Source: an uncultured Pyrinomonadaceae bacterium
GTDB lineage: Bacteria; Acidobacteriota; Blastocatellia; Pyrinomonadales; Pyrinomonadaceae
Length of the DNA stretch: 64,000 bases
Assembly (NCBI GenBank): GCA_964236735.1
Contig: CAXSFM010000001.1
Span: 122,015-186,014, forward strand
Reading direction: 5' to 3'
The position numbers and the translations under genes were made by a program. This document shows, in pieces, positions 3,276-59,463 of this stretch. Position 1 is the stretch's first letter. The number at the start of each line of letters is the position of its first letter. The notes below the pieces were generated by a model. It saw only the letters and a list, made by a program, of their open reading frames with translations, was not told the origin of the DNA and searched no databases.

Positions 3276-4186
3276 CTCTTCACACGCTTCGATAATCCTG
3301 ACATCAGCGACGGGATTTCCGCCGGCACTTCGCGCGGCAGATAGCCGAGTTGTCCCATCCGCGCGGCCAGACGGTCGCCCGCTCGCGCGTGCAGATAGAC
3401 GCCCCACACGGCGGCGATGTGCGGCATCGCGCCGCGCGCCGCGAGTCCCGCGACGATGCCGGCCAGCACATCGCCGGAGCCGGAAGCCGCCAGCCCGACG
3501 TTGCCCGCGTCATTGCGAAACGCTTCACCATCCGGCGTCGCGATGAAAGTCTCACGGCCTTTGAGCGCGACGACGGCGCGCAATTCTTTCGCGGCGCGGA
3601 GAGCGATGCGGAGCGAGTCGCGCTCGATCATGGATTTATCCGTCTCATTGATGCCCGCCATCTCGCCCGCATTCGGTGTAATGATGGCGCGTCCCTCGTG
3701 CGCGTGCAGCAATTTTTTGTCAGTGGCGAGACAGGAAATCGCGCCCGCGTCAAGCACCACAATAGATTTATCACAGCAACGCAGGACGGCTTTGACGAAG
3801 CGTCTCACCACAGTCGTGTCCATCAAGCCCGGCCCGATGCAGACAGCCTGCGCTTCTCCCAAATGTTTTTCGAGGCGCGCGACGCCCGCGTGCGAGAGTT
3901 CGCCAGCTTTGGTTTCAGGAAGCGCGAAGACGAGAGACTCCGGCACGTTCGACGCCACGAGAGGCGCGACGCTTTCCGTCGTGGCGATTTGTAATTTCCC
4001 CGCTCCCGCGCGCAAGCCCGCCGTCGCCGCCAGCATAATCGCGCCGGGCATCTCGGAACTGCCGCCGATGATGAGCAGACGCCCGCGCTCTTCCTTGTCG
4101 CCCTCCGCGCCGGGTTGCGGCAGACGAATCTTTTTGAGAAGGCGCGGCGTGATGTGGATTGATTGCTCTATCTTTTTCATTAACAT
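3272..4186 (-). CDS. nnrD: ADP-dependent NAD(P)H-hydrate dehydratase (YjeF C-terminal / Nnr dehydratase domain)
   Basis: YjeF_C-type motifs: LLIIGGS, GAIMLAATAGLRAGAG, GSGDVLAGIVAGL. Start moved to MLMKK at 4186, because the upstream part of the track ORF only translates the 4214-4286 inverted repeat. Confidence 0.75.
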   Translation of the reverse strand: MLMKKIEQSIHITPRLLKKIRLPQPGAEGDKEERGRLLIIGGSSEMPGAIMLAATAGLRAGAGKLQIATTESVAPLVASNVPESLVFALPETKAGELSHAGVARLEKHLGEAQAVCIGPGLMDTTVVRRFVKAVLRCCDKSIVVLDAGAISCLATDKKLLHAHEGRAIITPNAGEMAGINETDKSMIERDSLRIALRAAKELRAVVALKGRETFIATPDGEAFRNDAGNVGLAASGSGDVLAGIVAGLAARGAMPHIAAVWGVYLHARAGDRLAARMGQLGYLPREVPAEIPSLMSGLSKRVKR

Positions 4187-4213
4187 GACGATTCGCGATT
4201 GAATGCGACTCTT

Positions 4214-4286
4214 GTCAGTACCGCCTGCGGTAGCGGGCGGGTACTTACGTTGCAGACACCCGCCCGCTACCGCAGGCGGTACTGAC
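4214..4286. repeat. Perfect 29-bp inverted repeat (15-nt loop) in the spacer between the histidine-phosphatase gene and nnrD
   Basis: gtcagtaccgcctgcggtagcgggcgggt / acccgcccgctaccgcaggcggtactgac are exact reverse complements. No U-tract follows. Confidence 0.9.
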
Positions 4287-4304
4287 TTGTTGCTAAGTTC
4301 GAGT

Positions 4305-5075
4305 TTATTTCGGAGCGACTGGCACATCGCTCGATGTGGTAACGGCCTCGCCGGCCTCTTCGAGCGGGACTGTGAAATTGAAGAGACGCGGCGCGAACTT
4401 TCCTTTCTCGCCCATCGCTTTGTCATATTCGTAAGACGTGACCGAGCAGTTGGCGACATCACATTCGCGGTCGAGCGTCAGAATTTCATCTTCCGTCATC
4501 CGTTCGAGCAGATAACGAAAACAAAAGACGACGACCGAGTGCGCGACGATCAGAACACGCTCGCGCCTGTATTCGCGCGTCACCGTATCTACCACGCTGC
4601 GAAGACGAAGGATTACGTCGCACCAACTCTCGCCGCCCGGCGGGCGATGATAAAACTTGCCGAGCGCGGTGCGAATCTCCGCCTGCTCCGGGTACTTTTG
4701 CTGGACGCCCGATCTGGTCAGGCGGTCGAGGATGCCGAACTCTTTTTCGCGCAGGCGTTCATCCGTCACGAAGATGATTTTCTCCGCATCAATCCCTGCG
4801 GAGGCGAGCATGATTTCCGCCGTCCTGCGCGCGCGAAGATATGGCGAGACGAGCACGACGCGCGGTCGCTCATCTTCATCCATCGCGCCGTACCAGCGAC
4901 CGAGCGCGTCGGCCTGTCTCTCGCCGAGTTGCGACAGCGGCACGTCCACGTCGCGCATCGCGATGTCTATCACGCCCAGCCCGGAAGCTTCCGCGAGGTC
5001 GCGCGCCACATTTCCCGCGCTCTCGCCGTGTCGCACAATCCACAGCACGTCCGGCCACTTTTGCGAGTCGTTCAT
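4305..5075 (-). CDS. Histidine phosphatase family protein (phosphoglycerate-mutase-like)
   Basis: RHGES catalytic motif near the N-terminus (LWIVRHGESAGN) and a second His motif (IVAHS). Confidence 0.75.
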   Translation of the reverse strand: MNDSQKWPDVLWIVRHGESAGNVARDLAEASGLGVIDIAMRDVDVPLSQLGERQADALGRWYGAMDEDERPRVVLVSPYLRARRTAEIMLASAGIDAEKIIFVTDERLREKEFGILDRLTRSGVQQKYPEQAEIRTALGKFYHRPPGGESWCDVILRLRSVVDTVTREYRRERVLIVAHSVVVFCFRYLLERMTEDEILTLDRECDVANCSVTSYEYDKAMGEKGKFAPRLFNFTVPLEEAGEAVTTSSDVPVAPK

Positions 5076-8744: not shown

Positions 8745-10343
<1,599 letters not shown>

Positions 10344-10367
10344 GGTAAATGCATACGAGACATAGCA

Positions 10368-10940
10368 ATGAGTACGACTCGCATAATTACTGCTGACGAT
10401 TTGTTAGTCATGCCTCATCGTGATAGGCACGGCAATGATTGCCGACTTGAGTTGATTCACGGAGAGGTAAAGACGGCATCGCTCAATTCAATGGCACATG
10501 GCGTACTCTGCGTAAGACTTGCAACCGCCGTCAGTAATTTTGTTGAAGCGCACGAGCTAGGCGTTGTCTTCGCTACAGGGACAGGATTTCTCGTGGAGCA
10601 GAATCCTGATACGGTGTACGGCGTAGATGTCGCGTTTGTGAGCCACAAGCGGTTGAAGGCAGTCAATAATCTCGAAAAGTTCATTCCCTTTGCGCCCGAT
10701 TTAGCTATAGAAGTTTTGGGCATGAACGATACGATTTACGAAATGGATGAGAAGATCGCTTTCTACTTTGCCGCCGGTTCGCGCCTTGTGTGTATCATCA
10801 ATCCGAAGCGTCGCACGGTTGCGGTTTATACTTCGACGCTTGACGTGCGTATTTTCGACGGCAGCGACACGCTCGACGGCGGCGACGTTTTGCCGGGCTT
10901 CAAACTTGAGCTTTCCAGACTATTTGCCAACTTAAAATAG
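10368..10940 (+). CDS. Uma2 family endonuclease (DUF820, restriction-endonuclease-like fold)
   Basis: Typical Uma2 features: PDLAIEVLG... motif region and size (~190 aa). Confidence 0.7.
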   Translation: MSTTRIITADDLLVMPHRDRHGNDCRLELIHGEVKTASLNSMAHGVLCVRLATAVSNFVEAHELGVVFATGTGFLVEQNPDTVYGVDVAFVSHKRLKAVNNLEKFIPFAPDLAIEVLGMNDTIYEMDEKIAFYFAAGSRLVCIINPKRRTVAVYTSTLDVRIFDGSDTLDGGDVLPGFKLELSRLFANLK

Positions 10941-10969
10941 CGAGACGCGGCGCGGCATCCTGAGCCAAC

Positions 10970-13900
10970 ATGAAATTATCTCCGACAGAAATTTATCACG
11001 ATAGGAAAGTCTTCATCATCGGCGCGACCGGCTTCGTCGGCAAAGTCGCGCTCTCGATGCTGCTCGACCGCTTCCCCGGCGTCGGGCGCGTCTATGTCAC
11101 CGTGCGCGCTCGCTCGAAGGAAGAATCCGAGACGCGCTTCTGGAACAACGTCATCACCTCGCCGCCGTTCGATCCGATTCGCACACGCTACGGCGCGGCC
11201 TTCGAGGATTTCATCCGCGACAAAGTCCGCATCGTCAACGGCGACATCGGCGAAGACAATCTTGGCCTTACGGAAGAAGACGCGCAAGCTGTCGCCGACG
11301 ACATTGACGTGATCATCAACAGCGCGGGCAACGTCACTTTCAACCCGACGCTTGAAAGCGCGCTACGCACGAACGTCGTCGGCACACAGAACGTCATCCT
11401 GTTTGCCAAACGGATGAAGCGTCCCGCGCTCGTCCACATCTCGACGTGCTTCGTCGCGGGCAATCGTTCCGGGCCGGTGTGGGAGAGCGATCCGGTCGTT
11501 GGATACTTTCCGCGACGCGAGGAGATTCCCGGCGTCGAGTTTTCGGCGGAGCAGGAAATACGCGACTGCGCGAAACTGGCCGACCGCGTGCGCGAAGAGG
11601 CGCGCGATGCTTTGCAGGCCGCGCGCTTTCGTGAGAACGCGCGCAAGCGCCTTATCGAAGAGGGACGCAACCCCGACGACCTCGACGCGATGGGCTTGGC
11701 CGTCGCGCGCGAGCGCAAAATCTGGACGCGCGAGCGTCTGACGGAACTCGGCATCGAGCGCGCGGAGTTCTGGGGCTGGCCGAATATTTACACCTACACG
11801 AAGAGTCTCGGCGAACAACTCGTCGCCGCCGAGACGGATGTCGTGCGCGCCATCGTGCGCCCGTCCATCGTCGAGTCGGCCATCAAATTTCCCTTCCCCG
11901 GCTGGAACGAAGGCTTCACGACAACCGCGCCGCTCATCTTCATCGCGCTCAAAGGCCAGACGCAGATTCCCGTCAACGAAAAGTTGATTCTCGACATCAC
12001 GCCCGTTGATCAAGTCGCCGCCGTGATGCTCGCCGTCGCGGCGGAAGCGTGCGTGCGCGAGCCGCGCCTCGTCTTTCAGGCCGCGACCGGCGACAGCAAT
12101 CCGAACGACATGGAGCGCATCGTCGGCTTACTCGGTCTCTACAAGCGACAGCATTTCCAGGATAAGGAAACCGGCTTCCGAATCGTCAATGCCATCGCCG
12201 GGCGCATGGAAGCGCGTCCCGTCACGCCTTCGCGTTTTGATAAAACCTCGACGCCGATGGTCAACGCGGCGGCGAAGAAAGTTTCCTCCTTACTCGAACG
12301 CGCGCGCCCGCGTTGGGGCGGCGGTCGCCTGACCGATGTCATTGACAGCGCGCGTCAACAAATTGATCGTCTCGAAGAACTGACGCACGAAACCAAAGAA
12401 GCGTTCGAGATGTTTCGTCCCTTCATGGTCGAGAATGCTTACGTCTTCCGCGCCGACAACGTGCGCTCGCTCTTCGCGCAAATTCGTGCGGACGAGCGGC
12501 AACTGCTGACGTGGAACCCGGACAAGTTCGATTGGTACGACTACTGGATGCACGTCCATTTTCCGGGCTTGCAGAAATGGGTTTTCCCGACGCTCGAAGA
12601 AGACATGCGCGCGCAGCCGAAGCGCGCTTACACCTATCGCGATTTGCTCGAACTCTTCGAGACTTCGACGAAACGTTTCAGCACGCGCGTCGCCATGCGG
12701 ATCGAGCGCGACGGGCAGAAAGAGCAATACACCTACGCCGACTTGCAGGAACTGGCGACGCGCGCCGCCGCCTTCTTCGCCAGTCGCGGAGTCAAGCCGG
12801 CGGACAGAGTCGTGCTCGCCAGCCACAATGCGCCCGAATGGGGCATGAGTTATTTCGGCGTCCTCAAAGCCGGCGCGACGTGCGTGCCGGTTGACCCTGA
12901 AAGCTCGACGGAGGAACTCGTCAACTTCGTGCGCGCGAGCGGCGCGGTCGGAATTATCATCAACGCGAAAGTTGACGAGGCGCACGCAGACCTCGCCGAT
13001 GCGCTGACTCTCGCGGGACTGACAGTGACGCAAATCTGGCGGACGGCTGAGGTTTTCGAGTTAACCGACGAGGCGATGGAAGACGCGCGCATCGCACTGC
13101 TTCCCAGCCGCGTGACGGCGAACACGACGGCCTCTCTCATCTTCACTTCGGGCACGACGGGACAGCCGAAGGGCGTCATGCTCACGCACAAGAATCTGAC
13201 CAACATGGTCTCGATGCTCTCGTCCGTCTTCGACATGGACACGAGCGACGGCGTGCTCTCCGTGCTTCCGCTTTATCACACGTTCGAGTTCTCGACCGGC
13301 TTCCTAACGCCGTTCAGTCGCGGCACGCAGATAACTTATCTCGAAGAATTAAACAGCGACGAACTGGCGCGCGCCGTCAAAGACGGGCACGTCACGGGAA
13401 TGGTCGGCGTGCCCGCTTTGTGGGAGTTGCTGCATCGCCGCATCAACAATCGCTTGCACGAAAACAACGTCTGGGTCGGACGCGCGGCGGACATTATGAT
13501 GAGCGCGAACGGCTGGCTGCGCGACAATACGCCGCTTAATCTCGGACAAATTCTCTTCCGCCCGATTCATCAGGGACTCGGCGGGCACATCCGATATTTC
13601 ATCAGCGGCGGCTCGTCTCTCAATGAAAAAGTGAAGCGCGACATGCACCAACTCGGCTTCACCATCCTCGAAGGCTACGGGCTGACCGAAGCCTCGCCGG
13701 TGCTGACCGTCACGCGCCCGCAGAATCGCCTGATGCGGACGAGCGTCGGCAAGGCTCTGCCCGGCGTTGAACTCCGCATCAACGACGCGGACGCGAGCGG
13801 CGTCGGCGAAGTCGTCGCGCGCGGGCCCAATGTGATGGCCGGTTATTTTCAAAACGAGGAGGCGACCAAACTCGCGCTCATCAATCGCTGGCTCTACACG

Positions 13901-15439
13901 GGCGATCTCGGACGCCTTGATGATGAAGGCAATCTCTATCTCGTCGGACGCTCGAAAGAAATCATCGTTGACACGAACGGCAAGAATGTTTACCCGGACG
14001 AGATCGAAGAGTTGTACAGCGATTCGCCGTTTATCGAAGAGATCGGCGTCGTCGGTTTGACGGAGAGCGTCGGCGAAAAAATCGCCTGCATCGTCGTCCC
14101 GAACTACGATCACGACATCGCACTTTCGCGTGATGAAGTGCGCCGCAAAATCGAAAATCATTTCCGCGACGTGTCTTCGACGCTTCCCTTTTATAAGCGC
14201 GTCAAGTCGCTCTATTTCACGGACAGTGAACTGCCGCGCACGCCGACGAAGAAGGTCAAGCGGCGCGAAGTCGTCAAGATTATCGAATCGCTCGAAGAAA
14301 GTTTGCGTGCGGGATTGCGTGAAGGCGGCGCGGAAACTGCGTCGGCAACAACGTCAGGCAAGCGACAGAGCGATGCGGGTTGGCTCCTTGATGTCGTCGC
14401 CACCGTCGCCAACAAGCCACGCGCGCAAGTCACGCTCGATACGCGCCTCGCCGAACTCGGCTTCGATAGTTTGATGTTCGTCGAGCTTGCTTCTTCAATC
14501 GAAGGCGCGGGAGGCACGCTCACCTCGCCCGACTCGCTCAACGAAGTGCAAACCGTGCGCGAACTGCAAACGGTCGTCACGCGCAAACCGACCGTTGCCG
14601 AGCGACGCGCCGCAGAAGCGCGCGCCGCAGAAGAATTGCGCGAGGACGACGCGGAAATTTTCATTCCTTCCGTTGTCCGCACGGTCGGCAACAAAGGTCT
14701 CGATTATTTACAGAGTCTCTTTTATCAAAAGTTCCTGCACACGCAGGTCGAAGGCGAGACGAACATTCCCGTCCATACGAATTTCATCGTCGCCGCCAAC
14801 CACTCTTCGCACCTCGACATGGGACTCGTCAAAATGGCGCTCGGCGAGCAGGGGCGCGACATGGTGGCGCTCGCCGCCGCCGATTATTTTTTCGACAACA
14901 AATACAAGCGCGCCTACATGGACAACTTCACGAACCTCGTGCCCATTGAGCGTTCGGGCAGCCTTCGCAAGTCGCTCCGCCACGCGCGCTCGTTCCTTGA
15001 GCGCGGCTACACAGCCCTCATCTTCCCCGAAGGCACGCGCTCGATGACGGGCGAGTTGGACGAGTTCAAGCCCATCATCGGCTATCTCGCGCTCTCAACA
15101 CGGACGGGAATTTTACCGCTTCATTTGCAGGGCACTTACGCGGCGATGCCGAAAGGCTCGAACGTTATCAAGAGCCGCGAGGTGGGCGCGCGCGTCGGTC
15201 ATTTCCTTTCCATCGAAGAACTCGAAGACCTAACGCACGGGATGCCGAAGTCAGAGGCGTACCGTCTCGTCGCCGCGCTCGTCCATCACGAGATTGAAAA
15301 CTTGCGCGACGGCACGCGCCACGCTTTCGACGCCAAGTCGCTGCGCCGACGCTGGCGCACGGAGCGACGCGCCGCCGCACACGAAGAGACGGGTGACGAG
15401 ACGACACATGACGACACCTTCATTGCGACCGGCGACTGA
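10970..15439 (+). CDS. Multidomain lipid-biosynthesis enzyme: fatty-acyl reductase (NAD_binding_4) - AMP-dependent ligase - ACP - 1-acyl-sn-glycerol-3-phosphate acyltransferase (ElbD-like)
   Basis: N-terminal IGATGFVGK plus YTYTK reductase motifs. Central AMP-binding LIFTSGTTGQPKGVMLTHKNL. Phosphopantetheine site LGFDSLMFVEL. C-terminal acyltransferase HxxxxD (NHSSHLD) and FPEGTRS. Confidence 0.85.
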   Translation: MKLSPTEIYHDRKVFIIGATGFVGKVALSMLLDRFPGVGRVYVTVRARSKEESETRFWNNVITSPPFDPIRTRYGAAFEDFIRDKVRIVNGDIGEDNLGLTEEDAQAVADDIDVIINSAGNVTFNPTLESALRTNVVGTQNVILFAKRMKRPALVHISTCFVAGNRSGPVWESDPVVGYFPRREEIPGVEFSAEQEIRDCAKLADRVREEARDALQAARFRENARKRLIEEGRNPDDLDAMGLAVARERKIWTRERLTELGIERAEFWGWPNIYTYTKSLGEQLVAAETDVVRAIVRPSIVESAIKFPFPGWNEGFTTTAPLIFIALKGQTQIPVNEKLILDITPVDQVAAVMLAVAAEACVREPRLVFQAATGDSNPNDMERIVGLLGLYKRQHFQDKETGFRIVNAIAGRMEARPVTPSRFDKTSTPMVNAAAKKVSSLLERARPRWGGGRLTDVIDSARQQIDRLEELTHETKEAFEMFRPFMVENAYVFRADNVRSLFAQIRADERQLLTWNPDKFDWYDYWMHVHFPGLQKWVFPTLEEDMRAQPKRAYTYRDLLELFETSTKRFSTRVAMRIERDGQKEQYTYADLQELATRAAAFFASRGVKPADRVVLASHNAPEWGMSYFGVLKAGATCVPVDPESSTEELVNFVRASGAVGIIINAKVDEAHADLADALTLAGLTVTQIWRTAEVFELTDEAMEDARIALLPSRVTANTTASLIFTSGTTGQPKGVMLTHKNLTNMVSMLSSVFDMDTSDGVLSVLPLYHTFEFSTGFLTPFSRGTQITYLEELNSDELARAVKDGHVTGMVGVPALWELLHRRINNRLHENNVWVGRAADIMMSANGWLRDNTPLNLGQILFRPIHQGLGGHIRYFISGGSSLNEKVKRDMHQLGFTILEGYGLTEASPVLTVTRPQNRLMRTSVGKALPGVELRINDADASGVGEVVARGPNVMAGYFQNEEATKLALINRWLYTGDLGRLDDEGNLYLVGRSKEIIVDTNGKNVYPDEIEELYSDSPFIEEIGVVGLTESVGEKIACIVVPNYDHDIALSRDEVRRKIENHFRDVSSTLPFYKRVKSLYFTDSELPRTPTKKVKRREVVKIIESLEESLRAGLREGGAETASATTSGKRQSDAGWLLDVVATVANKPRAQVTLDTRLAELGFDSLMFVELASSIEGAGGTLTSPDSLNEVQTVRELQTVVTRKPTVAERRAAEARAAEELREDDAEIFIPSVVRTVGNKGLDYLQSLFYQKFLHTQVEGETNIPVHTNFIVAANHSSHLDMGLVKMALGEQGRDMVALAAADYFFDNKYKRAYMDNFTNLVPIERSGSLRKSLRHARSFLERGYTALIFPEGTRSMTGELDEFKPIIGYLALSTRTGILPLHLQGTYAAMPKGSNVIKSREVGARVGHFLSIEELEDLTHGMPKSEAYRLVAALVHHEIENLRDGTRHAFDAKSLRRRWRTERRAAAHEETGDETTHDDTFIATGD

Positions 15440-37497: not shown

Positions 37498-38103
37498 CTA
37501 CTGCGTCTCAGACCACATCCCGGCTTTTCTGTGTTCGCCGAGCATGTTGCAAAAAAGCGCGCCCTGCGAAAGCGCGTCGTCGAGCGCTTGATGCGTGTAG
37601 GGCAAATCGTCGAACCAGCGGCGCGGCATATTTCGTTTGACGGCGTCGAGGAAGTTGGTGTTGAGAATCGCCATCGCGAGCGTTTTGATGTCGAGCGCCC
37701 ACCAGCCGAAAGGATTCTCGCCCGTGAACTTGTTGAGATACCAGCAGACGTACATGAAATCGAACGCTGCCGGATACGCGACGAAGATCGGCTTTCCCGG
37801 CAGAGCCTTGATCCACGTCACATAATCGCGCATCGCCTGCTCCGGCGGCTGCACGTTCTTTCGGCACGCTTCCCACGCCTTCGGTTGCTGATTCTTCCAC
37901 CACGCCATCGTTTCAGGATGCCCCGTCGCCCCCGGCAGCGTTTCGAGGTTGACGGTGAAAGTCCCAAGCAAAGTCTTGTCGGCGCGATAGGCGGCGGAGC
38001 CGAGACTGAGCATCGAGTGTGGGCCGGGAATCGGCCCGTCGGTTTCCACATCAGTGCTCACATAAATTTCGACCATCGTATCTGTCCCCGAATTCGTAAA
38101 CAT
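37498..38103 (-). CDS. DEDDh-type 3'-5' exonuclease domain protein
   Basis: [11 protein letters not shown] (Exo I motif DxE), internal acidic motif, and [10 protein letters not shown] (Exo III H-x4-D). Confidence 0.5.
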
Positions 38104-38521
38104 ATCAATGCGTCCAAACTTTTATAGCATGAATGCCTCTCGATTTGTCCGTCAGGGTTGAATAACATCTGAATGTTGCTCGTTTAATCGTCAAGTGTCA
38201 TCACCCAGCCAAGCTGCCGCCAAACGAGAGTTTGAAGGGTTTCCCGGCATCGCTCAGAATCCACGCAACTTGCACAAATCCTTTTAATAGTGCATTATAG
38301 CTTCGTTATTCCCCTCTCTCGCGCATCAATGGTGATGCGCCCCGCGCTCCGAAGATAGCGGTGGCGTTTTTGTTAAGGTTCGAGAGTTGTTGGAAAGAAT
38401 TTCGCGGAAGTTGCTCTCTACAGAGAATATCCGAACCGGTGCTATCGCCATTATCGTTTCTCCGAAGATCAAAAATTTCGAGTAACATTCAACACTCCGC
38501 GCGCGGAGAGGAAAACTTTTT

Positions 38522-38842
38522 ATGAGCATGAAACTATACGTCGGCAACCTTTCGTTCCAGACATCCGCTGATGACTTGCAGGAATTTTTCGCGCAAGCCG
38601 GAACGGTCGTCTCATCCAACATCATCGAAGATCGTGAGACGGGTCGCTCGCGCGGCTTTGGCTTCGTCGAGATGTCCAGCAAAGAAGAGGGCGAGGCGGC
38701 GATTCAGCAATTCAACGGGAAAGACCTCAACGGTCGTAATCTGACGGTCAACGAAGCTCGCCCGCGCGAAGATCGTGGCGGCGGCGGCGGTGGTAATCGC
38801 GGCGATTATGGCGGCGGCGGTAATCGAGAGTCACGCTGGTAA
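38522..38842 (+). CDS. RRM-type glycine-rich RNA-binding protein
   Basis: RNP2 (LYVGNL) and RNP1 (RGFGFVEM) motifs with a GGGGGGNRGDYGGGGN C-terminal tail. Preceded by a ~400-nt leader. Confidence 0.9.
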   Translation: MSMKLYVGNLSFQTSADDLQEFFAQAGTVVSSNIIEDRETGRSRGFGFVEMSSKEEGEAAIQQFNGKDLNGRNLTVNEARPREDRGGGGGGNRGDYGGGGNRESRW

Positions 38843-38975
38843 TTGACGGCGCGTTTAAGTTTTCAAACCACCCCCTGGCAGAAATTAAGCCGCCGGGGGT
38901 TTCGCTTGAGAGCAATGCACTTGCTCACAGGCGACATGCGGAAATCAGAGCATTTTTTTCTGAGGAGATATTTGT

Positions 38976-39197
38976 TTGGCAAAAGAAGATTTAATCCCCG
39001 CCGAGGGAGTCATCGTGGACAAACTGCCCAACGCCTTTTTCAAGGTTAAGTTGGACGGCAGCCAGCATGTCGTGCTGGCACAGATTTCCGGCAAGATGCG
39101 TAAGAACTTTATCCGCATCCTGCCCGGTGATCGCGTCTCGGTCGAGTTGTCACCGTATGATTTGACCAGAGGCCGGATCACTTACAGATACAAATAA
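38976..39197 (+). CDS. infA: Translation initiation factor IF-1
   Basis: 73 aa with the canonical IF-1 S1-fold sequence ([53 protein letters not shown]). Confidence 0.95.
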
Positions 39198-39300
39198 CTC
39201 TGCCGTTAATGACGAGCAGCGACGGCAGTGAGACGTTTTAGTCAACCGCCAGCCGGCATCCTTTTGTGCGAGCGGCATCGAGATCGAAGGAGAGACAATT

Positions 39301-39714
39301 ATGGAGAAAGTTGTTACGGAGAAACCCACCTACGCCGTCGGTGATCGCGTAGAAAAGTTGTGCGCCGTCTGTGGCGAAGAGCGCGGGCATGTCGTCGCCA
39401 CCGTCACCAAGCAGGGGCGCATTTCTCGTGTCCAGTGTCCGCAATGCAGCACGCGCAGTTCTTTCAAAAGCACGAAGGGCAAGACCACGACTTCCAGCAC
39501 CGGCGCGAAAACCGGCTCCGCCTACGACCGCACGCGCACGTATCGCGTCGGCCAGTCCATGCTTCACGCGCAGTACGGTTACGGCGAGGTGACGGCGTTG
39601 ATCGAGCCGAAGAAGATTGACGTGCTTTTTGAGGATCGTATGCGCCGCCTGATTCACGCGCAGATGCCTGTCCAGAGCGAGGCATTGTCGGCGGCCAGCG
39701 CGTTGAAAGCTTAA
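39301..39714 (+). CDS. Hypothetical protein: N-terminal CxxC...CxxC zinc ribbon plus C-terminal small beta-domain (DUF3553-like pattern)
   Basis: CAVCGEERGH...CPQCSTRS, then YRVGQSMLHAQYGYGEVTAL. Located between infA and rpsU. Confidence 0.45.
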   Translation: MEKVVTEKPTYAVGDRVEKLCAVCGEERGHVVATVTKQGRISRVQCPQCSTRSSFKSTKGKTTTSSTGAKTGSAYDRTRTYRVGQSMLHAQYGYGEVTALIEPKKIDVLFEDRMRRLIHAQMPVQSEALSAASALKA

Positions 39715-39917
39715 GACTCAACCGGCTAACTTGCCATCAACTTTGAAGTCCGGCAAGGTAGCATTCGCATTTGATGCGACACACACATTTGAGAGGCAGG
39801 TGGTTGCCCTTTTATCGAATTTAGAAATTGAGTAAGTCCAACTAACGCATTCGCAAATTTTCGCGGGAGATAAAATGCCCGCGAGTTTCTTTGTCACGTT
39901 GAGAATGGAGAACAGAA

Positions 39918-40121
39918 ATGGCAGTCATCAATATTAATCAGGGCGAATCAATCGAGAGCGCGCTACGTCGCTTCAAGCGCAAGGTGATGTCGGAAGAGAT
40001 TATCAAGGACGCGAAGAAGCACGCCTTCTTCATGTCGAGCGGCCAGAAGGCCAAGCTCAAGTCCGCCCTCGCGCGCAAGCGTAACAAGCGCAAGGCACGC
40101 CCGCCGCGCCCGCGCACCTAA
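39918..40121 (+). CDS. rpsU: 30S ribosomal protein S21
   Basis: MAVININQGESIESALRRFKRKV... is canonical bS21, with a Lys/Arg-rich C-terminus. Confidence 0.9.
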   Translation: MAVININQGESIESALRRFKRKVMSEEIIKDAKKHAFFMSSGQKAKLKSALARKRNKRKARPPRPRT

Positions 40122-53804: not shown

Positions 53805-53956
53805 AAAGTGGAACAGCCGGCAACGAAAGCTTGCGAGACAGCCATACACGAACTTCGTGCGATTTTACGGGCTTTCGCGTTTGACGATTTTCCTCGCATC
53901 AACTTCGCAACTACATTAGAATCCGGCGAGATTCGAGCAACCGCAAGGAGCTTTCC

Positions 53957-56800
53957 ATGTCCTCAAAAGGTCTCACCAAATCTGCACTGGCCGTGCTTGG
54001 ATGCGCTGGTGCATCCGTTGCCGCGCCGCTCATCGCGCCGTATCTGGCGACGATCTCGCTTCCCTTCTTTGGAGCGATGCTGGCAGGCGTCATAACCAAT
54101 GAACAGCTTCAGGATAAATTAGTTGATGCCATCGGCAACACGGCTGCCGGATTCCTGACCAACATCGGCAGCTACGTTGCGACGGATAAACTTCCCGGCG
54201 CGTTGTCGCCCGATCACAACTTTCATCTCGAAAGAATGCTGGCAACGGCTTATCTCATCTCGCTCAAAGCAATCGAGCAGGAGTTCAAGGCAGATGCGGA
54301 CGAGAAGTTGCAGGTGCAGGCCGCGCAAATTTTCCCGTCCCTCAAAGCCAGAATCGAAAGAGGCTTGAAGCAGAAAGACCTTTCCGCGCTCTTTCCTGTG
54401 CAGGCCATCAACCAGCCAACTGGCACGGCCTTCGCCAATCGCTTTTCAGCGGAGAACGTGACGCTGCTCATCGCGGACGAAGAGAAATGGCACGAGCAGC
54501 TTGGTGAGGAAGTCGAGACGACACTGCGCCGGTGGCTCGACGAAGAGCGCGACACGGAAGCGCAGGTCGCGCCCATCACACAACTTTCGCTGGCAAGAGA
54601 CACACAACTGCCTGAGCCGCTGCGCTCGCGCCTGCGCGCGGAGATGCCGCACAGCATCGCGCATCAGATCAGCGAACTCGTCAAACACGATGAGTTCAAA
54701 GAGTCGTGGATTGCCTTTCAACGGGCGCACCTGCAAGGAATCGGGCGCGTCGTCGAGAGAATCGAAACCTCGCAGGAGGACATCCGGGAGAGCGTCGTCG
54801 CGCTGGCGCAACGGATCGAAGGCTTCGCCAGTCAGGACGAGTTCGTCGCGGCGATTGCCGATAAGCTACAAGTATTCCTGAGCCAGACCACTCTGCCACC
54901 GGACGAGTTGGCGCGACTGCTCGAACGCCAAAGCGAAGAGTTGCGCGGCCTCGAAGAACGGCTCGGCGCGAAGTTTGAGCAAGGCACTGAACGGCTTTCA
55001 ACCGAAGGCAAAGAAAACACCGCGCAGCTTTCTGAGCAAATCCAATCGCTCGACAAAAAGGTTGAACAGGTTAAAGAGGAGATTCTGCAAAGCGCGGTAA
55101 GAGCAGCCCGTAACAGGTTGAAGCAACTGCCCGCGCCGCCGCGCGATTTCACCGGGCGCGAGACGGAATTGAGAGAGTTACGGCAAGCTCTGCGGCAGGG
55201 CGGCGCGACGATTTCGGGCGTGCAGGGCATGGGCGGCGTGGGTAAGACCGCGCTGGCATTAGTGCTGGCGGATGAATTCAAAGACCAGTACCCGGAAGCG
55301 CAAATCTACCTCGATCTGCGCGGCACGAGCAAACAACCGCTTCCACCTGCCGAAGTGATGTGGCACGTCGTCAGTTCCCTTCAACCCGAAACGAAGCGCC
55401 CCGACGATGATCAATTGCCCAGCTTGTTCAATTCCGTACTCGACGACAAGCGTGTCCTGTTGTTCTACGACAATGCGGGAGACCCCGCGCAAATCGCGCC
55501 CCAATTACGGTGGCTGCCGCCTCGACAGTGTTTACTTCTGGTCACTTCACGAAAGCGTCTGGGTTTGCGCGGTATGTCTGAAAAGAATCTGGATGAGATG
55601 AGCAAGGAGGACGCAAACGCGCTGCTGCTCAAAATCGAGCCGCGCATCGGCGGGCACGCACCGGCGATTGCGGAGCAGTGCGGTTATCTCCCCATCGCGT
55701 TGTGCGCTGCCGCCAGCGTGTTGAAAATCAAAACCGCGCTGGCTCCCGAAGATTACCTGAATCGTTTGCGAATCAGAAAAGAGCGACTTTCCCTATATGA
55801 TGTAGAAAGAGACCTCAGCGTCGAAGCTTGTTTCGGCGAGAGCTACGACTTGCTGAACGAAGAACTGCCACGACGCTGGCGAATGCTGGCAATCTTCCCG
55901 ACCGACTTCGACGCGCCTGCGGCGGCAGCCGTGTGGCAGACGGACGTTGAGGCTGCGAAAGACTCGCTGGCGGAGCTTGAAGAATACAGCCTGCTCGATT
56001 GGGAAGAAGCCGCACAGCGTTACACCCTGCACGACCTCGCGCGTGATTTCGCGGACACGCGCTTGAGCGCAGCCGAACGCGAACAGGCAGGCTTGCTGCA
56101 CGCGACGCATTATTTACAGATTCTCTCGACGGCTGATGATCTTTTCCAAAAAGGCGGTGCAGCGATTGCCGGAGGGCTTTCGCTTTTCGACAACGAGCGC
56201 GTCAACATTGAAGCCGGTCAGGAATGGGCAGCCGTGCGCTTCGCCGGCAACGAGCAAGCCGCTCAATTGTGCAACATGTATCCCGATGCAGGCGCTTTCG
56301 TTCTCAGCCTGCGCCAACATCCACGCGATCTTATTCGCTGGCTTGAAGCCGCGTTGCCGGCTGCACAGCAACTCAGAGACGCGCGCGCCGCCGAAGGAAG
56401 ACACTTAGGCAATCTGGGCAACGCCTACGTCCGCTTGGACGAGACGCGCCGTGCCATCGAATTCCACGAGCAGTATCTCAACATCACCCGCGAGATCGGC
56501 GACCGGCGCGGCGAGGGCAACGCGCTGGGCAACATGGGAGTTGCCTACGCCGACTTGGGAGAGACGCGCCGTGCCATCGAGTTCTACGAGCAGGCTTTGG
56601 TCATCTCACGCGAGATCAGCGACCGGCGCGGCGAGGGTGCGGACTTGGGCAACTTAGGCATTGTTTATAAAGACTTGGGTGACACGGAACAGGCGATAGG
56701 ATATATGGAAGAGGCGGTGAAGATTTTAGAAGAGATTGAGTCGCCGAATGCCAACGTCGTGCGGGGCTGGCTGGAAAAGTTGCGCGGCAAGAGCGGGTGA
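53957..56800 (+). CDS. STAND NTPase: uncharacterised hydrophobic/helical N-terminal module + coiled coil + NB-ARC ATPase + C-terminal TPR repeats
   Basis: P-loop GMGGVGKTALALVLA within an NB-ARC-like region. At least four TPR-like repeats (LGNLGNAYVRLDETRRAIEFHEQ... repeated). First ~60 aa strongly hydrophobic. Confidence 0.8.
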   Translation: MSSKGLTKSALAVLGCAGASVAAPLIAPYLATISLPFFGAMLAGVITNEQLQDKLVDAIGNTAAGFLTNIGSYVATDKLPGALSPDHNFHLERMLATAYLISLKAIEQEFKADADEKLQVQAAQIFPSLKARIERGLKQKDLSALFPVQAINQPTGTAFANRFSAENVTLLIADEEKWHEQLGEEVETTLRRWLDEERDTEAQVAPITQLSLARDTQLPEPLRSRLRAEMPHSIAHQISELVKHDEFKESWIAFQRAHLQGIGRVVERIETSQEDIRESVVALAQRIEGFASQDEFVAAIADKLQVFLSQTTLPPDELARLLERQSEELRGLEERLGAKFEQGTERLSTEGKENTAQLSEQIQSLDKKVEQVKEEILQSAVRAARNRLKQLPAPPRDFTGRETELRELRQALRQGGATISGVQGMGGVGKTALALVLADEFKDQYPEAQIYLDLRGTSKQPLPPAEVMWHVVSSLQPETKRPDDDQLPSLFNSVLDDKRVLLFYDNAGDPAQIAPQLRWLPPRQCLLLVTSRKRLGLRGMSEKNLDEMSKEDANALLLKIEPRIGGHAPAIAEQCGYLPIALCAAASVLKIKTALAPEDYLNRLRIRKERLSLYDVERDLSVEACFGESYDLLNEELPRRWRMLAIFPTDFDAPAAAAVWQTDVEAAKDSLAELEEYSLLDWEEAAQRYTLHDLARDFADTRLSAAEREQAGLLHATHYLQILSTADDLFQKGGAAIAGGLSLFDNERVNIEAGQEWAAVRFAGNEQAAQLCNMYPDAGAFVLSLRQHPRDLIRWLEAALPAAQQLRDARAAEGRHLGNLGNAYVRLDETRRAIEFHEQYLNITREIGDRRGEGNALGNMGVAYADLGETRRAIEFYEQALVISREISDRRGEGADLGNLGIVYKDLGDTEQAIGYMEEAVKILEEIESPNANVVRGWLEKLRGKSG

Positions 56801-56894
56801 TTTGTGCCGACGGGTTCGCGCGTCATGTCATGGATTATCTTTATTGCTTAAGCAGCAACGACGTGAGCGGTGCGCCAGCTATTTTCAGGCAATA

Positions 56895-56952
56895 GCAAAA
56901 AGGCAAAAGTGAAGATGGAGAGCGAACTCCTTCTCTTCACTTTTGCCTTTTT
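56895..56952. terminator. Bidirectional hairpin terminator between the convergent STAND and roadblock genes
   Basis: gcaaaaaggcaaaagtgaaga ... tcttcacttttgccttttt with T/A runs on both sides. Confidence 0.6.
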
Positions 56953-56981
56953 ACTTCTGCCTTAAAGGAAAGCAGCTTTGC

Positions 56982-57347
56982 TTACAGTGCGAACTCGCGC
57001 GAGAGTTCGAGTTCGGCTTTGCGTAGCTCGTATCTGCCGCGTCCGAGATTGCCGTCGGGATGCATCGTGAGGACGACGAAGTAGTCAGCCGTGAAGAGAC
57101 GCGCGATAATCTGCGTGCCTTCAAAGGCGACGACCATCTCGCGCAGGACGCCGAGACCCGTCGCGCCTCCCGCGCGCATCGCGCTTCGCACGAGCGAAGT
57201 CACTTCAGCGGCGGCGACATCCATGTTCGACTCGCTGCCTTCCGGCAGAAAGACCTTTTCAACCGCGATGCCGTCCGTGCCCATGATGAGCGCGCCGGTC
57301 GCGCCTTCCGTCCGCTCGACGATGTTGGTGAGAGCTTCCTTAAACAT
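56982..57347 (-). CDS. Roadblock/LC7 domain protein (MglB-like)
   Basis: 121 aa with a roadblock-fold pattern (GATGALIMGTDGIAV..., FVVLTMHPDGNLG). Confidence 0.65.
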   Translation of the reverse strand: MFKEALTNIVERTEGATGALIMGTDGIAVEKVFLPEGSESNMDVAAAEVTSLVRSAMRAGGATGLGVLREMVVAFEGTQIIARLFTADYFVVLTMHPDGNLGRGRYELRKAELELSREFAL

Positions 57348-57361: not shown

Positions 57362-59197
57362 TTAGGGGCGCGTGCCGGGATTGGCGCGCGGTGAGTTGGA
57401 CGGGACTAAGTCGCGTCCAGCCGGTTCAGTCAGTTGCTGTTGCGGCTGAACCTGTTGCTGCTGCTGCGAAGGTGAATTCGCCGGTGTGTTGGAGTCGGGA
57501 TTGCCGAGCGGCACGGGCTGCGAGATTTGCACCGAGCGCGTAGTGGTCGCGGGCGCGGAGTCCGTGCGACGACCCTGATAGTCAGGCCGGTAGATGCGCG
57601 GAGTGATGAAGAAAAGTATCTCGTCCGTGTTGCGCGAGATGGACTTGCGCTTGAAGAGATTGCCGATGACGGGTAAGCCGCCGAGTCCGGGCGTGCGATT
57701 CGTGACCTCGCTCTCGCGGTCGTTGAGCACGCCGCCGACGACGGTCGTTCCGCCATCCGGCACGAGCACTTCGGTCTGCATCCGCTGCGTGTCAATGCCC
57801 GGCGTGCCGAGCGAATTGGTGAGCGTCCCGTTGACGCTGTTGTTCTCCATCACGACGCGCAGGACGACCGTACCCGCGTCCGTGATCTGCGGAGTGATTG
57901 AGAGACGAAGCGGGACGGAGACGAACGTCGTCGTGAAGACGCCGCTCGCGCCCGACGCGCTGGCCTGCGGCGTGACGACAGGAATCTGCGAGCCGCTTTC
58001 AATCTGCGCCGGGCGATTGTTGAGCGCCGTCACGCGGGGCGTCGCGACGATCTTCGCCTGCCCTCTGGCTTCCGCCGCCGTGATGAGCGCGCTGATCTGC
58101 GCCGTGCCGATGGCTCCCGTCGTCAGACCGATGACGGTGCTGGCCGCCGTCGCGGCGAGCGACGAAAGCGGTTGATTCGTGTTGCCGAGTCCGCCCGGAA
58201 TACTCTGCGGGTTGACGCCTGAATTGATGGTGGTGTTTCCCGGCAGAGTGCTGAACGAGCCGAGCGCGCCGCGATTCGCGTTCAGCGCGACGGCTCCAAG
58301 CTGGACGCCGAGGTCGCGGCTGAAGCTGCGATTGGCGATGACGATGCGCGTCTCGATCTCGACTTGCGGCTCCGGTTGATCGAGGAGCGTGACGAGTTGG
58401 CGAACAGCGTCAATATTTTCTTTCACGTCGGTGACGATGAGCGTGTTGCTGCGCCCGTCAACTTCGACGCTGCCGCGCTTCGACAGGCGGCGCTGGATGA
58501 TCGGCAGGATGCCGATGCTGGAAGGGTTCGACTGGATTTCACGTCCCGCGTTGCCCTGCTCATATCCCGTGTCGGCAGTGTTCCCCGCTCCGCCCTTAAA
58601 AACCGCCGTGCCTTCGGAGGCCGCGCCGAGCGTGCCGAGAGCGCGCGCGTAGTTGAGCCGGATGATTTCCGTGACGAGCGCGGAGTTATTGAGTTGCGCC
58701 TCGCGGAGTCTCTGCTTCGCGGCCTCTTCGGCGGCGCGGCTCTTCGACTCTTCGACTAAGACTTCCTGCGTCGCCACGCGCAGAATATTTCCCGTCACTT
58801 CGATGCCGAGACGGTTGGCTCTGAGAATCGCATCAAGCGCGAAGTTCCAGGGCACTTCCGTCACGTTGATGGTGACGGGCACTTTGCCCACCGACGAGTC
58901 AACGACGAAGTTCACGCCGTACTGCTCGGTGATGTAGTTGAGAATGTCGCGGATGTCGGCGTTGACGACGTTGAGATTGATCGGCTCGCCGACGAATCCC
59001 TGCTGGCCGTAACGCTGCCCCTGCGAAGCCTGCGGCGTAGTGTTCGGCGATCCTGCGAGTTGCGCCTGCGCTGTAGAATGCTGACGCGACGCGCCGCCGT
59101 GGACGCCTGCGAACGCGACTGCGTGCAGCGAGCAGATGAAAATGAGGACGAGCGCTCCCATTTTTATGATCGCTGAAAGTTGTTTGTGATAAGTCAT
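57362..59197 (-). CDS. pilQ: Type IV pilus secretin PilQ
   Basis: C-terminal secretin domain (GGLPVIGNLFKRKSISRNTDEILFFITPRIY) and N0/AMIN-like N-terminal regions. Start set at MTYHKQ, preceded by GAAGGA. Confidence 0.85.
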   Translation of the reverse strand: MTYHKQLSAIIKMGALVLIFICSLHAVAFAGVHGGASRQHSTAQAQLAGSPNTTPQASQGQRYGQQGFVGEPINLNVVNADIRDILNYITEQYGVNFVVDSSVGKVPVTINVTEVPWNFALDAILRANRLGIEVTGNILRVATQEVLVEESKSRAAEEAAKQRLREAQLNNSALVTEIIRLNYARALGTLGAASEGTAVFKGGAGNTADTGYEQGNAGREIQSNPSSIGILPIIQRRLSKRGSVEVDGRSNTLIVTDVKENIDAVRQLVTLLDQPEPQVEIETRIVIANRSFSRDLGVQLGAVALNANRGALGSFSTLPGNTTINSGVNPQSIPGGLGNTNQPLSSLAATAASTVIGLTTGAIGTAQISALITAAEARGQAKIVATPRVTALNNRPAQIESGSQIPVVTPQASASGASGVFTTTFVSVPLRLSITPQITDAGTVVLRVVMENNSVNGTLTNSLGTPGIDTQRMQTEVLVPDGGTTVVGGVLNDRESEVTNRTPGLGGLPVIGNLFKRKSISRNTDEILFFITPRIYRPDYQGRRTDSAPATTTRSVQISQPVPLGNPDSNTPANSPSQQQQQVQPQQQLTEPAGRDLVPSNSPRANPGTRP

Positions 59198-59463
59198 ATT
59201 TTCATCCTTCAAGGCATCACCGGCAGAAAACCGCCACGCGCTAACGCTCGTTCGAGCGACTACCCTTGTCACCCTTCTAAGCGCGCGCCGCACAATGCGG
59301 AACGCTGCAAGTCATGTTGTCAAAAAAGACTCACTGGCAGCGGGGCTGAATCGCCCCTGACTGTTTCGTGGAGTGTTGGAATGAGGGACAGTCGTCCGGG
59401 CAGCCGTTGTCGCCTGGGCGCAAGTTCTCAGGCTTTTTCGCGCGACCACACGGCTTGAAAAAC

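Follow-up and report, generated by a model that had tools for sequence, protein, structure and literature searches.

A STAND gene inserted beside the pil cluster

We analyzed a stretch of 64,000 nucleotides (the window) from an uncultured Pyrinomonadaceae bacterium. One of its genes encodes a bacterial NLR-like (NB-ARC + TPR) switch protein that is intact and stands alone. The first-pass annotation had placed a 947-aa open reading frame at 53957-56800, and these coordinates proved exact. The ATG start position is common to all orthologues, and an identical protein is encoded on an independent assembly contig, where the neighbors are also the same. The gene and its parts are as follows.

53945..53950, + strand: ribosome-binding site AAGGAG, read directly, 6 nt before the ATG
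53957..56800, + strand: whole gene (947 aa, ATG start, stop included), an NLR-like STAND protein with N-terminal module (N-module), coiled coil, NB-ARC and TPR
53981..54100, + strand: hydrophobic tip, aa 9-48; uncharged, rich in small residues (Gly/Ala/Pro), with period-4 prolines
54101..54208, + strand: amphipathic Gly/Ala/Ser/Thr-rich helix and linker, aa 49-84, from the alignment and a low-confidence model helix at 49-73
54209..54742, + strand: predicted helical-bundle core of the N-module, aa 85-262
54743..55141, + strand: coiled-coil-like stalk, aa 263-395, connecting the N-module with the NTPase; long helices predicted at 273-390
55142..56086, + strand: NB-ARC NTPase, aa 396-710; nucleotide-binding domain, ARC1 and ARC2/winged helix, from Pfam and motifs
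56087..56398, + strand: helical linker, aa 711-814; possibly degenerate TPR-like repeats, spanned by an alignment to a PH0952-type TPR sensor
56399..56758, + strand: three 40-residue TPR units, aa 815-934 (Pfam TPR_12, TPR_7, TPR_10 and others)
56897..56952: likely bidirectional terminator hairpin with flanking A- and T-tracts, in the gap between the STAND gene and the convergent roadblock gene

The terminator hairpin has a minimum free energy of -36.5 kcal/mol (z-score -7.4 against shuffles). A promoter scan, which is uninformative for Acidobacteriota, returned no σ70-like promoter upstream of the gene. All domains gave dN/dS values of 0.18-0.44, so the gene is not a pseudogene; these are crude NG86 estimates, and excluding a pseudogene was their only use. 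We rejected an arms-race signature, as the values overlap those of the housekeeping neighbors (0.13-0.37) and are not clearly above them.

The surroundings are as the first-pass annotation described them, with mtgA upstream and a convergent Roadblock/LC7 gene downstream, followed by pilQ/P/O/N/M. Approximately 50 metagenomic loci with an orthologue of the roadblock gene (63-79% identity) keep the arrangement pilQ-roadblock><mtgA-HDAC-ABC2-ABC, and none of them has the STAND gene. In the closest of these STAND-less loci, only 66-231 bp separate roadblock from mtgA. Orthologues of the STAND gene sit elsewhere, among unrelated neighbors. The STAND gene is an accessory gene inserted into an otherwise conserved housekeeping neighborhood. 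Its insertion boundaries could not be placed by aligning the window flanks with the "empty" sites, the intergenic DNA having diverged too far. A search for neighboring defense genes, suggested in the first-pass annotation, found none flanking the gene in the window and no conserved partner beside the N-module gene at about 10 loci; one orthologue adjoins a Tn7-like TniQ gene.

Domains of the protein

The P-loop NB-ARC core noticed in the first pass was borne out by a Pfam match and a complete set of motifs. Pfam NB-ARC covers aa 402-593 and passes marginally (24.5 bits against a cut-off of 23.5), a better result than that of the NACHT profile, which stays below its cut-off (17.3 against 26.7 bits). 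We found the Walker A motif GMGGVGKT at aa 424-431, Walker B (LLFYDN) at aa 501, the sensor-I arginine motif LLVTSR at aa 527, a GLPL-like motif (GYLPIA) at aa 576 and an MHD-like LHD at aa 691. Judged by its motifs, the NTPase is complete, with every one that is diagnostic of the NB-ARC (AP-ATPase) clade. There were 277 NB-ARC homologues at E<=1e-10, and the nearest solved NTPase relative is the NOD of Streptomyces AfsR (E 2.7e-37). NCBIfam gave partial matches only, to AfsR and HaaT, far under the family cut-offs (188 vs 1430 bits and 194 vs 1125 bits) and confined to the NOD/TPR part; the AfsR match is limited to aa 347-711.

At the C-terminus, the region aa ~815-930 is recognized by TPR_12 and related families (E 7.6e-20), with repeat cores LGN[LM]G..Y at aa 817, 857 and 897. 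The repetition is visible in the DNA as a tandem repeat of 120 nt in 2.1 copies (56434-56686). This array is presumed to be the ligand sensor. Where "at least four" TPR repeats had been proposed, three are explicit; further ones are plausible in aa 711-814, a linker with no explicit TPR call and with 76-79% identity in close orthologues.

Residues 1-390 fall outside every Pfam, NCBIfam and PADLOC family. The first-pass annotation had described about 380 aa with no obvious catalytic signature, consisting of hydrophobic helices and then a coiled coil. The lack of a catalytic signature stands, and both structural elements are present, but a globular helical bundle between them (aa 85-262, confidently predicted by modeling) had been missed. 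The bundle has the conserved motifs HNxDLE..LAxAY, LFP, LRRW, LPxPL and SWIAFQRxHLQ. Residues N88, L91, A98, L145, F146, R192, W193, L222, W251, A253 and Q255 are near-invariant across the N-module family and mostly structural. An AlphaFold2 run with 8 close sequences was unusable (mean pLDDT 44.8); a rerun with 26 diverse family sequences reached a mean pLDDT of 71 and a pTM of 0.70. Block means were mostly 85-96 over aa 90-140, 180-200 and 220-250. The structure prediction proposed earlier served well for the bundle and poorly for aa 1-83 (pLDDT 36-61, unreliable). The bundle matched nothing in the PDB or among viral folds, and the N-terminus had no fold match to DNA-binding domains. A sequence-profile search of the PDB with the N-module gave nothing below E 0.1. 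The stalk had only weak coiled-coil-type matches (ZorA tail, LmuB, ApoLp-III). We judged the PADLOC matches to ZorA and LmuB, in which the stalk aligns with the ZorA tail, to be compositional and not homology. Weak Pfam matches to DUF7686, DUF456 and C19orf12 were below threshold and inconsistent between family members, and we rejected them.

The tip (aa 9-48) is the best-conserved part among orthologues, with 21 of 40 positions invariant and a dN/dS of 0.18. It has no charged residues, 20 small and 16 large hydrophobic ones. Its period-4 positions are P24, P28, T32 and P36, and prolines 24 and 28 are conserved across the family. The hydrophobic stretch reported in the first pass is real but marginal: its 19-residue Kyte-Doolittle maxima are 1.86 and 1.71, below the values of true transmembrane segments in membrane proteins of the window (mostly 2.2-3.1). 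Most family members have maxima of 1.6-2.1, and the two most distant (P0043 and P0047) keep the bundle without a strongly hydrophobic tip. Such marginal hydropathy is equally compatible with a latent inserting segment, for which values lower than those of true TM helices would be expected, and with a constitutive anchor in the form of a helical hairpin. The tip is more conserved than a membrane anchor requires.

The N-module family and its chassis

Word-indexed searches with the N-terminus returned just 7-8 close Acidobacteriota fragments, and an exhaustive HMMER profile search was needed. Among 1.84 billion proteins (E<=1e-3), the N-module was found in 42 cluster representatives, invariably at the N-terminus. 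It is fused to NB-ARC/TPR, NACHT-like, nSTAND5, nSTAND6, AAA_16-type and Avs1b-like NTPases and to pentapeptide repeats; a few members have non-P-loop C-termini (P0013, 1474 aa, no P-loop; P0024, 554 aa). The number of TPR units in the family ranges from 3 to more than 15. Almost all members seen so far come from soil Acidobacteriota and unnamed metagenomic lineages, and there were no relatives on IMG/VR viral contigs. One protein from Pyrinomonadaceae (L006) is 58% identical in module and stalk and 27% identical in the NTPase, and has more than 15 NPHP3-type TPRs; this comparison suggests a recent swap of the N-module between chassis within Pyrinomonadaceae. The N-module is a rare helical module, modularly shuffled and filed under no known family.

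We also compared the N-terminal slot of NB-ARC relatives. At 41-53% identity, the slot holds TIR (aa 7-115), SEFIR/TIR, HNH (aa 26-66), EAD10 (aa 1-60) or DUF4062 (aa 7-80). The N-module occupies this effector slot, in which relatives carry known death domains (TIR, nuclease). None of the 120 NB-ARC relatives listed has a SARP/BTAD domain. The closest one among the matches listed (P0049, 63% identity) has an HTH_28/HTH_32 N-terminus, so the NOD clade also serves DNA-binding outputs.

Possible functions of the protein

The tests run place the window protein outside the Avs, bNACHT, Bell and SARP families. The first-pass annotation had seen an Avs/NLR-like architecture and proposed comparison with Avs and bNACHT. 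The NLR-like NB-ARC/TPR reading held, and recognizable Avs membership did not: Avs models in PADLOC v2, a library that does not extend to Avs6-21 of a 2026 study, gave no match at E<=1, the hits being limited to a generic TPR model and to noise from coiled coils, and the PADLOC bNACHT models did not match. Like Avs/AVAST and NLR-related proteins, the window protein is the product of a single gene and has three parts: an N-terminal output that varies, a STAND NTPase, and TPR-like repeats at the C-terminus. The likeness extends to outputs swapped modularly between chassis, to accessory status with variable genomic location, and to the one N-module family member with an Avs1b-like NTPase. Unlike Avs, it has an AfsR-like NB-ARC NTPase, lies outside a defense island and carries an N-module that is not among the catalogued effectors.

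A membrane-inserting N-terminus, which had been thought an unusual effector, has precedents. The Extended Data legend of PMC13581612 lists TM effectors in Avs proteins. Passages of 10.1101/2024.11.07.622273 describe Bell/Babybell domains in which a hydrophobic helix 1, cupped by four helices in Bab/Babybell, belongs to an executioner of cell death that moves to the cell periphery; its section 8 reports a related N-terminal motif in Avast2 that is functional and required for defense. Some execution domains of this kind occur in direct fusion with NB-ARC/TPR proteins (10.1101/2020.01.06.895854; 10.1101/2024.11.07.622273). Bell/Babybell, HeLo, MLKL and plant CC-NLR (ZAR1) domains resemble the N-module in being all-helical N-terminal domains with no catalytic site; in them, the work is done by a conserved hydrophobic helix at the N-terminus, and activation is by oligomerization or templating. 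An acidic residue at position 2-3, a Bell/HeLo feature, is present in 11 of 26 family members. However, we found no sequence or fold homology of the N-module to Bell, HeLo, HELL, SesA, RPW8 or Rx_N. It does have a hydrophobic, highly conserved tip, which may or may not pack against the bundle, the tip being modeled at pLDDT <62; the domain is 2-3 times larger than those of the Bell/HeLo type. As to a Bell-type amyloid signaling motif shared with an adjacent partner, no small partner gene is conserved at orthologous loci.

Three observations argue for an NLR-like protein of the defense type: the module is shuffled between unrelated STAND chassis; many close NB-ARC relatives have TIR, SEFIR, HNH, EAD10 or DUF4062 in the same slot; and about 50 loci with the synteny otherwise in common lack the gene. 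The analysis shows the domain anatomy, how rare and how modularly shuffled the N-module is, its place in the effector slot and the accessory status of the gene; a role in defense, a ligand, oligomerization and membrane attack are inferred, with each step modeled on the workings of characterized STAND/NLR proteins. The C-terminal TPR array would maintain auto-inhibition until it bound its specific ligand, for which a foreign protein from a phage or mobile element is the likeliest candidate. The NB-ARC module would then exchange nucleotide and oligomerize, and the coiled-coil stalks would gather the N-terminal modules, whose cluster would be the output. Because the module lacks a catalytic signature and its most conserved part is an uncharged, weakly hydrophobic tip, we propose that it may insert into the membrane. 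Clustering would expose or align the tip segments, leading to insertion into the cytoplasmic membrane, permeabilization and an outcome like abortive infection, comparable to what is brought about by resistosomes of plant CC-NLRs, by fungal HeLo and by the Bell/Babybell executioners of bacteria.

Our confidence differs between the parts of this proposal. The protein is probably a conflict-type NLR with the N-module as its output. The whole reading, in which a single-gene conflict receptor of the NLR/Avs-like kind attacks the membrane through its clustered N-modules, is one that we hold tentatively, as slightly less likely than not. Permeabilization specifically is more doubtful. It seems unlikely, if worth stating, that the N-module is a new, independently evolved membrane-executing domain family for bacterial NLRs, in which a ~270-residue bundle would release its 40-residue (PxxxP)n tip on NB-ARC oligomerization to form a pore or lesion. 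Such a bacterial "resistosome" would be akin in neither sequence nor fold to Bell/HeLo/CC domains or to gasdermins.

The tip could instead be a permanent N-in/C-in helical hairpin that tethers a signaling STAND receptor to the inner membrane, with bundle and stalk relaying a signal (an unlinked partner, envelope status) without killing the cell. AlphaFold2 draws helices of about 20 residues at 3-22 and 27-46 with a proline-rich turn between them, lysines ahead of the hydrophobic stretch match the positive-inside rule, the hydropathy of most family members would suit such a hairpin, and the iSTAND and DO-GTPase sections of PMC7159879 describe membrane-proximal conflict systems with N-terminal TM segments. 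We nevertheless consider constitutive anchoring rather improbable: in hydrophobicity the tip ranks below most of that genome's true TM helices, it is conserved far beyond the needs of an anchor, three to four period-4 prolines are unusual in a stable TM helix, no conserved partner gene adjoins the gene at any of about 10 loci, and the most distant members have the bundle without the hydrophobic stretch.

We give even less weight to a Death/CARD- or EAD-like adaptor that would not itself kill and would recruit, by homotypic contact, a separately encoded effector bearing the module. P0013 and P0024, with the module on non-NTPase C-termini, are possible partners, and among related NB-ARC proteins there are some with EAD10 in this slot. 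In addition, part of the module and stalk weakly resembles PF22735 NNH3 (NACHT N-terminal helical domain 3), a helical region recurrent directly before NACHT NTPases. Five family members match NNH3 over the last module helix (SWIAFQRxHLQ) and stalk with 14-24 bits against a gathering score of 27; the window protein has no match. NNH3 spans at most ~90 of the ~395 N-terminal residues and its function is undescribed, our literature search finding only chemistry papers. Against an adaptor, there is a single module copy per locus (window and 9 related loci) with no adjacent partner found, the module has ~270 aa plus stalk where EADs and Death-like domains have 60-100 aa, and the conserved hydrophobic tip is left unexplained.

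A regulatory role, called equally possible in the first pass, is weakened. In an AfsR/MalT/GutR-type transcriptional or metabolic regulator, the STAND core would gate an output controlling housekeeping genes. The SARP regulator AfsR does provide the closest solved NB-ARC + TPR core, with the same length and post-N-terminal domain order; NCBIfam partially matches AfsR and HaaT, and P0049 has its HTH N-terminus. But AfsR has an N-terminal OmpR-type DNA-binding domain and BTAD, and the window protein has neither: Trans_reg_C, BTAD, HTH, SARP and OmpR-type domains gave nothing at E<=1. Its N-terminus is hydrophobic and helical, the AfsR and HaaT scores are low and restricted as described above, and no target operon is conserved. 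The first-pass annotation had held that a SARP-like fold together with conserved housekeeping synteny would refute its defense or signaling reading; we found no DNA-binding domain and no conserved synteny with pil or mtgA, and such a regulator is very improbable. A functional partnership with the type IV pilus or Roadblock (MglB-like) neighbors, for example in polarity or motility, is hardly credible, since the position of the gene, convergent to roadblock at the end of the pilMNOPQ cluster, is offset by its absence from all of the ~50 loci with this arrangement, by orthologues that are all in other contexts, and by the strong bidirectional terminator dividing the two transcription units.

STAND proteins of the NLR-like type are now counted among the pattern-recognition receptors of bacteria. 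Their N-terminal slots contain a catalogue of cell-death tools, and many of these slots are still unnamed. We found no characterized defense system of this kind from Acidobacteriota. The N-module is cleanly delimited. Its sequence signatures are clear, it has no relative of solved structure, and its conserved hydrophobic tip with periodic prolines is unusual. Should it prove to be a membrane tether or adaptor and nothing more, the list of STAND N-terminal domains would gain one ordinary entry. As a membrane executioner, it would add a new non-enzymatic killing module and a further parallel of bacterial NLRs with those of plants, fungi and animals.

Gene, NTPase and putative sensor of the STAND protein

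The STAND gene is a single open reading frame of 947 codons at 53957-56800 (+), as judged from the ORF listing and its translation. It has an RBS-like AAGGAG 6 nt 5' of the ATG, and the start methionine is common to all orthologs of the window protein. In Pfam, aa 402-593 matched NB-ARC, slightly over the gathering score, and aa ~815-930 matched TPR families. There were three explicit 40-residue TPR units, visible in the DNA as a 120-nt repeat (2.1 copies), and the full set of NB-ARC landmarks was found.

NB-ARC landmarks of the window protein
aa 424: Walker A, GMGGVGKT
aa 501: Walker B, LLFYDN
aa 527: LLVTSR
aa 576: GYLPIA
aa 691: LHD

The ORF, the Pfam matches, the complete landmarks and the TPR units establish that the NB-ARC/TPR STAND protein proposed in the first-pass annotation is real. 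With dN/dS ratios of 0.18-0.44 in its domains, the gene is under purifying selection; the housekeeping neighbors had 0.13-0.37, so it is not outstanding in this respect.

A search with the NB-ARC NTPase part alone recovered 277 homologs. Relatives at 41-53% identity carried N-terminal TIR, SEFIR/TIR, HNH nuclease, EAD10 or DUF4062 domains. By coordinates, these domains lie within aa 1-130, before the NB-ARC. None of the 120 relatives listed (of 277) had a SARP/BTAD domain.

Anatomy and spread of the N-terminal module

No model in Pfam, NCBIfam or PADLOC matched aa 1-390 of the window protein. The initial description of this region, two hydrophobic helices followed by a coiled coil, was right about the hydrophobic segment and the coiled-coil-like stalk, but it was incomplete, as the N-terminus has four parts.

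Parts of the N-terminal 395 residues
aa 9-48: tip, with 0 charged, 20 small and 16 large hydrophobic residues
aa 49-84: amphipathic helix rich in Gly/Ala/Ser/Thr, plus linker
aa 85-262: helical bundle
aa 263-395: long helical stalk, coiled-coil-like

The tip is the best-conserved stretch among orthologs, with 21 of 40 positions invariant and a mean entropy of 0.53 bit. Its hydropathy is marginal (19-residue Kyte-Doolittle values of 1.86 and 1.71, compared to 2.2-3.1 for most TM segments in membrane proteins encoded in the window), and its unweighted Hessa sums were positive. The tip has prolines at 24, 28 and 36. P24 and P28 are near-universal across the family, and a full period-4 run occurs in several branches, e.g. 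TLPVIAPFAAPFVVPLM. We know of no described motif that resembles this period-4 proline motif, PxxxPxxxPxxxP (tip at window 53981-54100; family alignment A3).

The bundle was predicted by AlphaFold2 with a mean pLDDT of 71 and a pTM of 0.70, and block-mean pLDDT was mostly 85-96 in the best-predicted stretches. A confident prediction required 26 diverse family sequences; 8 close sequences were insufficient. Bundle signatures found family-wide were HNxDLE..LAxAY, LFP, LRRW, LPxPL and SWIAFQRxHLQ. The near-invariant residues of the module are mostly structural, with no catalytic-looking set among them.

The stalk gave weak matches of coiled-coil type only (ZorA tail, LmuB, ApoLp-III). Weak PADLOC matches to ZorA of Zorya, in its long C-terminal tail, recurred at aa 166-389 of the window protein and aa 171-428 of the L004 ortholog, the latter being the best (E 1.8e-5). 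These probably reflect coiled-coil composition, and the layout of ZorA, a hydrophobic head with a long helical tail, is superficially like that of the module and stalk.

Word-indexed searches with the N-terminus recovered just a few fragments, from Acidobacteriota or Pyrinomonadaceae. When 1.84 billion cluster representatives were searched exhaustively with a profile, the module was found in 42 proteins at E<=1e-3 (30 at E<=1e-10), at the extreme N-terminus in every case. Most family members are singletons from metagenome assemblies, and three species-representative Pyrinomonadaceae MAGs carry full-length versions. The parts found downstream of the module were diverse.

Partners found downstream of the module
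NB-ARC/TPR
NACHT-like NTPases
nSTAND5
nSTAND6
AAA_16-type P-loops
Avs1b-like NTPase (P0022, E 5.8e-12)
pentapeptide repeats
two proteins without any P-loop

The last two, P0013 (1474 aa) and P0024 (554 aa), join the module to a large C-terminal region without a P-loop or Pfam match, and could be alternative sensors or partner proteins. The module-bearing STAND protein of locus L006 is 58% identical to the window protein in both module and stalk and only 27% identical in the NTPase, and its sensor is a different TPR array (15 units, NPHP3-type). The pattern is one of recent swapping of the module.

Searches of the module against known families gave a single recurrent lead. There was no match below E 0.1 in a profile search of the PDB, and none below E 0.27 with Foldseek against PDB and BFVD. 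PF22735 NNH3 ("NACHT N-terminal helical domain 3") matched 5 of the 26 aligned members scanned, at 14-24 bits (cut-off 27); the matches span the module's final helix and the beginning of the stalk. No NNH3 match was found for the window protein itself, and a literature search for NNH3 found no description of it. We treat this sequence resemblance as a lead and not as a classification of the module.

Genomic setting of the gene

The gene content around the STAND gene confirmed the housekeeping neighborhood noted earlier (mtgA, the pil operon and a convergent roadblock gene). On the 5' side are Opp-like permeases, an ABC ATPase, an ABC-2 permease, an HDAC-family protein and MtgA, and on the 3' side are the convergent Roadblock/LC7 gene and then pilQ-P-O-N-M.

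Features at and beyond the 3' end of the STAND gene
56897-56952: strong hairpin with A- and T-tracts between the convergent STAND and roadblock genes (-36.5 kcal/mol, z -7.4)
56982-57347 (-): Roadblock/LC7 (MglB-like) gene, directly after pilQ at the end of pilM-N-O-P-Q
57362-59293 (-): longest PilQ ORF, 643 aa with a GTG start

On an independent contig (L007) the PilQ gene was called at 599 aa, which is 44 residues shorter than the longest ORF here, and translation probably begins at the downstream site. We saw no gene for an MglA-like GTPase beside roadblock. Elsewhere in the window, G+C dips to 0.524 at 38001-40000, compared to 0.57-0.62 in the rest.

We retrieved 80 metagenomic loci (L010-L089) through the roadblock protein (63-79% identity). 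In about 50 of these soil-metagenome loci, those with enough flank, the order pilQ-roadblock><mtgA-HDAC-ABC2-ABC was kept, with roadblock directly after pilQ. None of the ~50 loci sharing the pilQ-roadblock><mtgA order had the module, NB-ARC or TPR parts of the STAND gene. The closest loci have 66-231 bp and no gene between roadblock and mtgA. More distant lineages carry other cargo at the junction: a secreted SNase-like protein (~385-420 aa) encoded in the same direction as roadblock, and proteins of 224 aa (membrane), 173 aa (zinc-ribbon) and 278 aa. Because it is empty in the closest loci and holds other genes in distant lineages, the convergent roadblock|mtgA junction (window 56801-56981; L010-L089) is a variable spot. 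The intergenic DNA is too diverged for the insertion boundaries to be mapped by alignment with empty sites.

The contexts of the orthologs are unrelated to that of the window. No conserved partner gene was found beside them across the loci compared, and there was one module copy per locus.

Neighbors of the orthologs in related loci
L001 and L004: Vgb-lyase-like propeller, adjoining
L002: PQQ propeller, adjoining
L005: dipeptidase, nearby
L006: Tn7-like TniQ gene and dUTPase, nearby
L008: toxin-antitoxin genes, nearby
L009: PcfJ, nearby

In L006, a 911-aa TniQ + HTH_17 protein (Tn7-like targeting component; 1816-4551, +) is encoded upstream of the module STAND (10001-14344), and a radical-SAM/HMPTM gene also lies within 8 kb, which suggests that this paralog is in or beside a transposon cargo region. 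In L002 (2918-5611), the ortholog is split by a frameshift into two ORFs (P0005 and a TPR ORF), and about eight small ORFs, none with a Pfam match, come after it. Contig coverage is 1.4x, and the split is probably due to misassembly and not to pseudogene formation. In L008 (13069-17272), toxin-antitoxin genes (a CopG-like antitoxin, HicA/HicB) are interleaved with those for E1, E1-beta and E2 in a 2-oxoacid dehydrogenase cluster.

Proposed mode of action

Four features agree with single-gene conflict receptors of the NLR/Avs type: the anatomy, the position of the module in the effector slot, its shuffling between chassis, and the accessory distribution of the gene. To this extent the Avs/NLR-like candidacy proposed in the first-pass annotation holds; membership in the described groups that were compared does not, since the PADLOC Avs families gave no match to the window protein, and its NTPase is NB-ARC, unlike the NACHT of bNACHT proteins. 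Its working mode would be like that of Avs/NLR-type receptors: the TPR sensor would release NTPase-driven oligomerization, which would activate the N-terminal output.

That output is non-enzymatic, and clustering of the modules may lead to membrane attack. We favor this reading because of the non-enzymatic output and because the conserved, weakly hydrophobic tip at the extreme N-terminus recalls the working helix of plant CC-NLRs, fungal HeLo and bacterial Bell/Babybell domains; in addition, the effectors listed for Avs proteins include TM types (PMC13581612). Bell/Babybell domains have been shown to move to the cell periphery and cause cell death, and Avast2 requires a related motif at its N-terminus (10.1101/2020.01.06.895854; 10.1101/2024.11.07.622273). 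We found no sequence or fold similarity between the module and Bell/HeLo, from which it also differs in size and in having no amyloid partner.

It is possible that the tip is instead a permanent hairpin anchor, or that the module is a homotypic adaptor. A regulatory role, earlier considered equally possible, has lost ground. The closest solved NTPase is that of Streptomyces AfsR (E 2.7e-37), and the single closest NB-ARC relative, at 63% identity, carries HTH_28/HTH_32 at its N-terminus; the clade thus includes DNA-binding outputs too. However, an AfsR-like transcriptional role is poorly supported, as the window protein lacks a DNA-binding domain such as heads SARP regulators. A role with the neighboring pilus or roadblock genes is poorly supported as well, given the absence of the STAND gene from the syntenic loci and the hairpin, a likely terminator, that separates it from roadblock.

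Membrane attack on clustering remains our favored reading, and the more novel proposal that the module represents a new family of membrane-executing domains, forming a bacterial analog of the resistosome, is tentative and somewhat doubtful. The NTPase and sensor chassis is ordinary, and the N-terminal module represents a rare family that is not yet filed, with an unusual motif.
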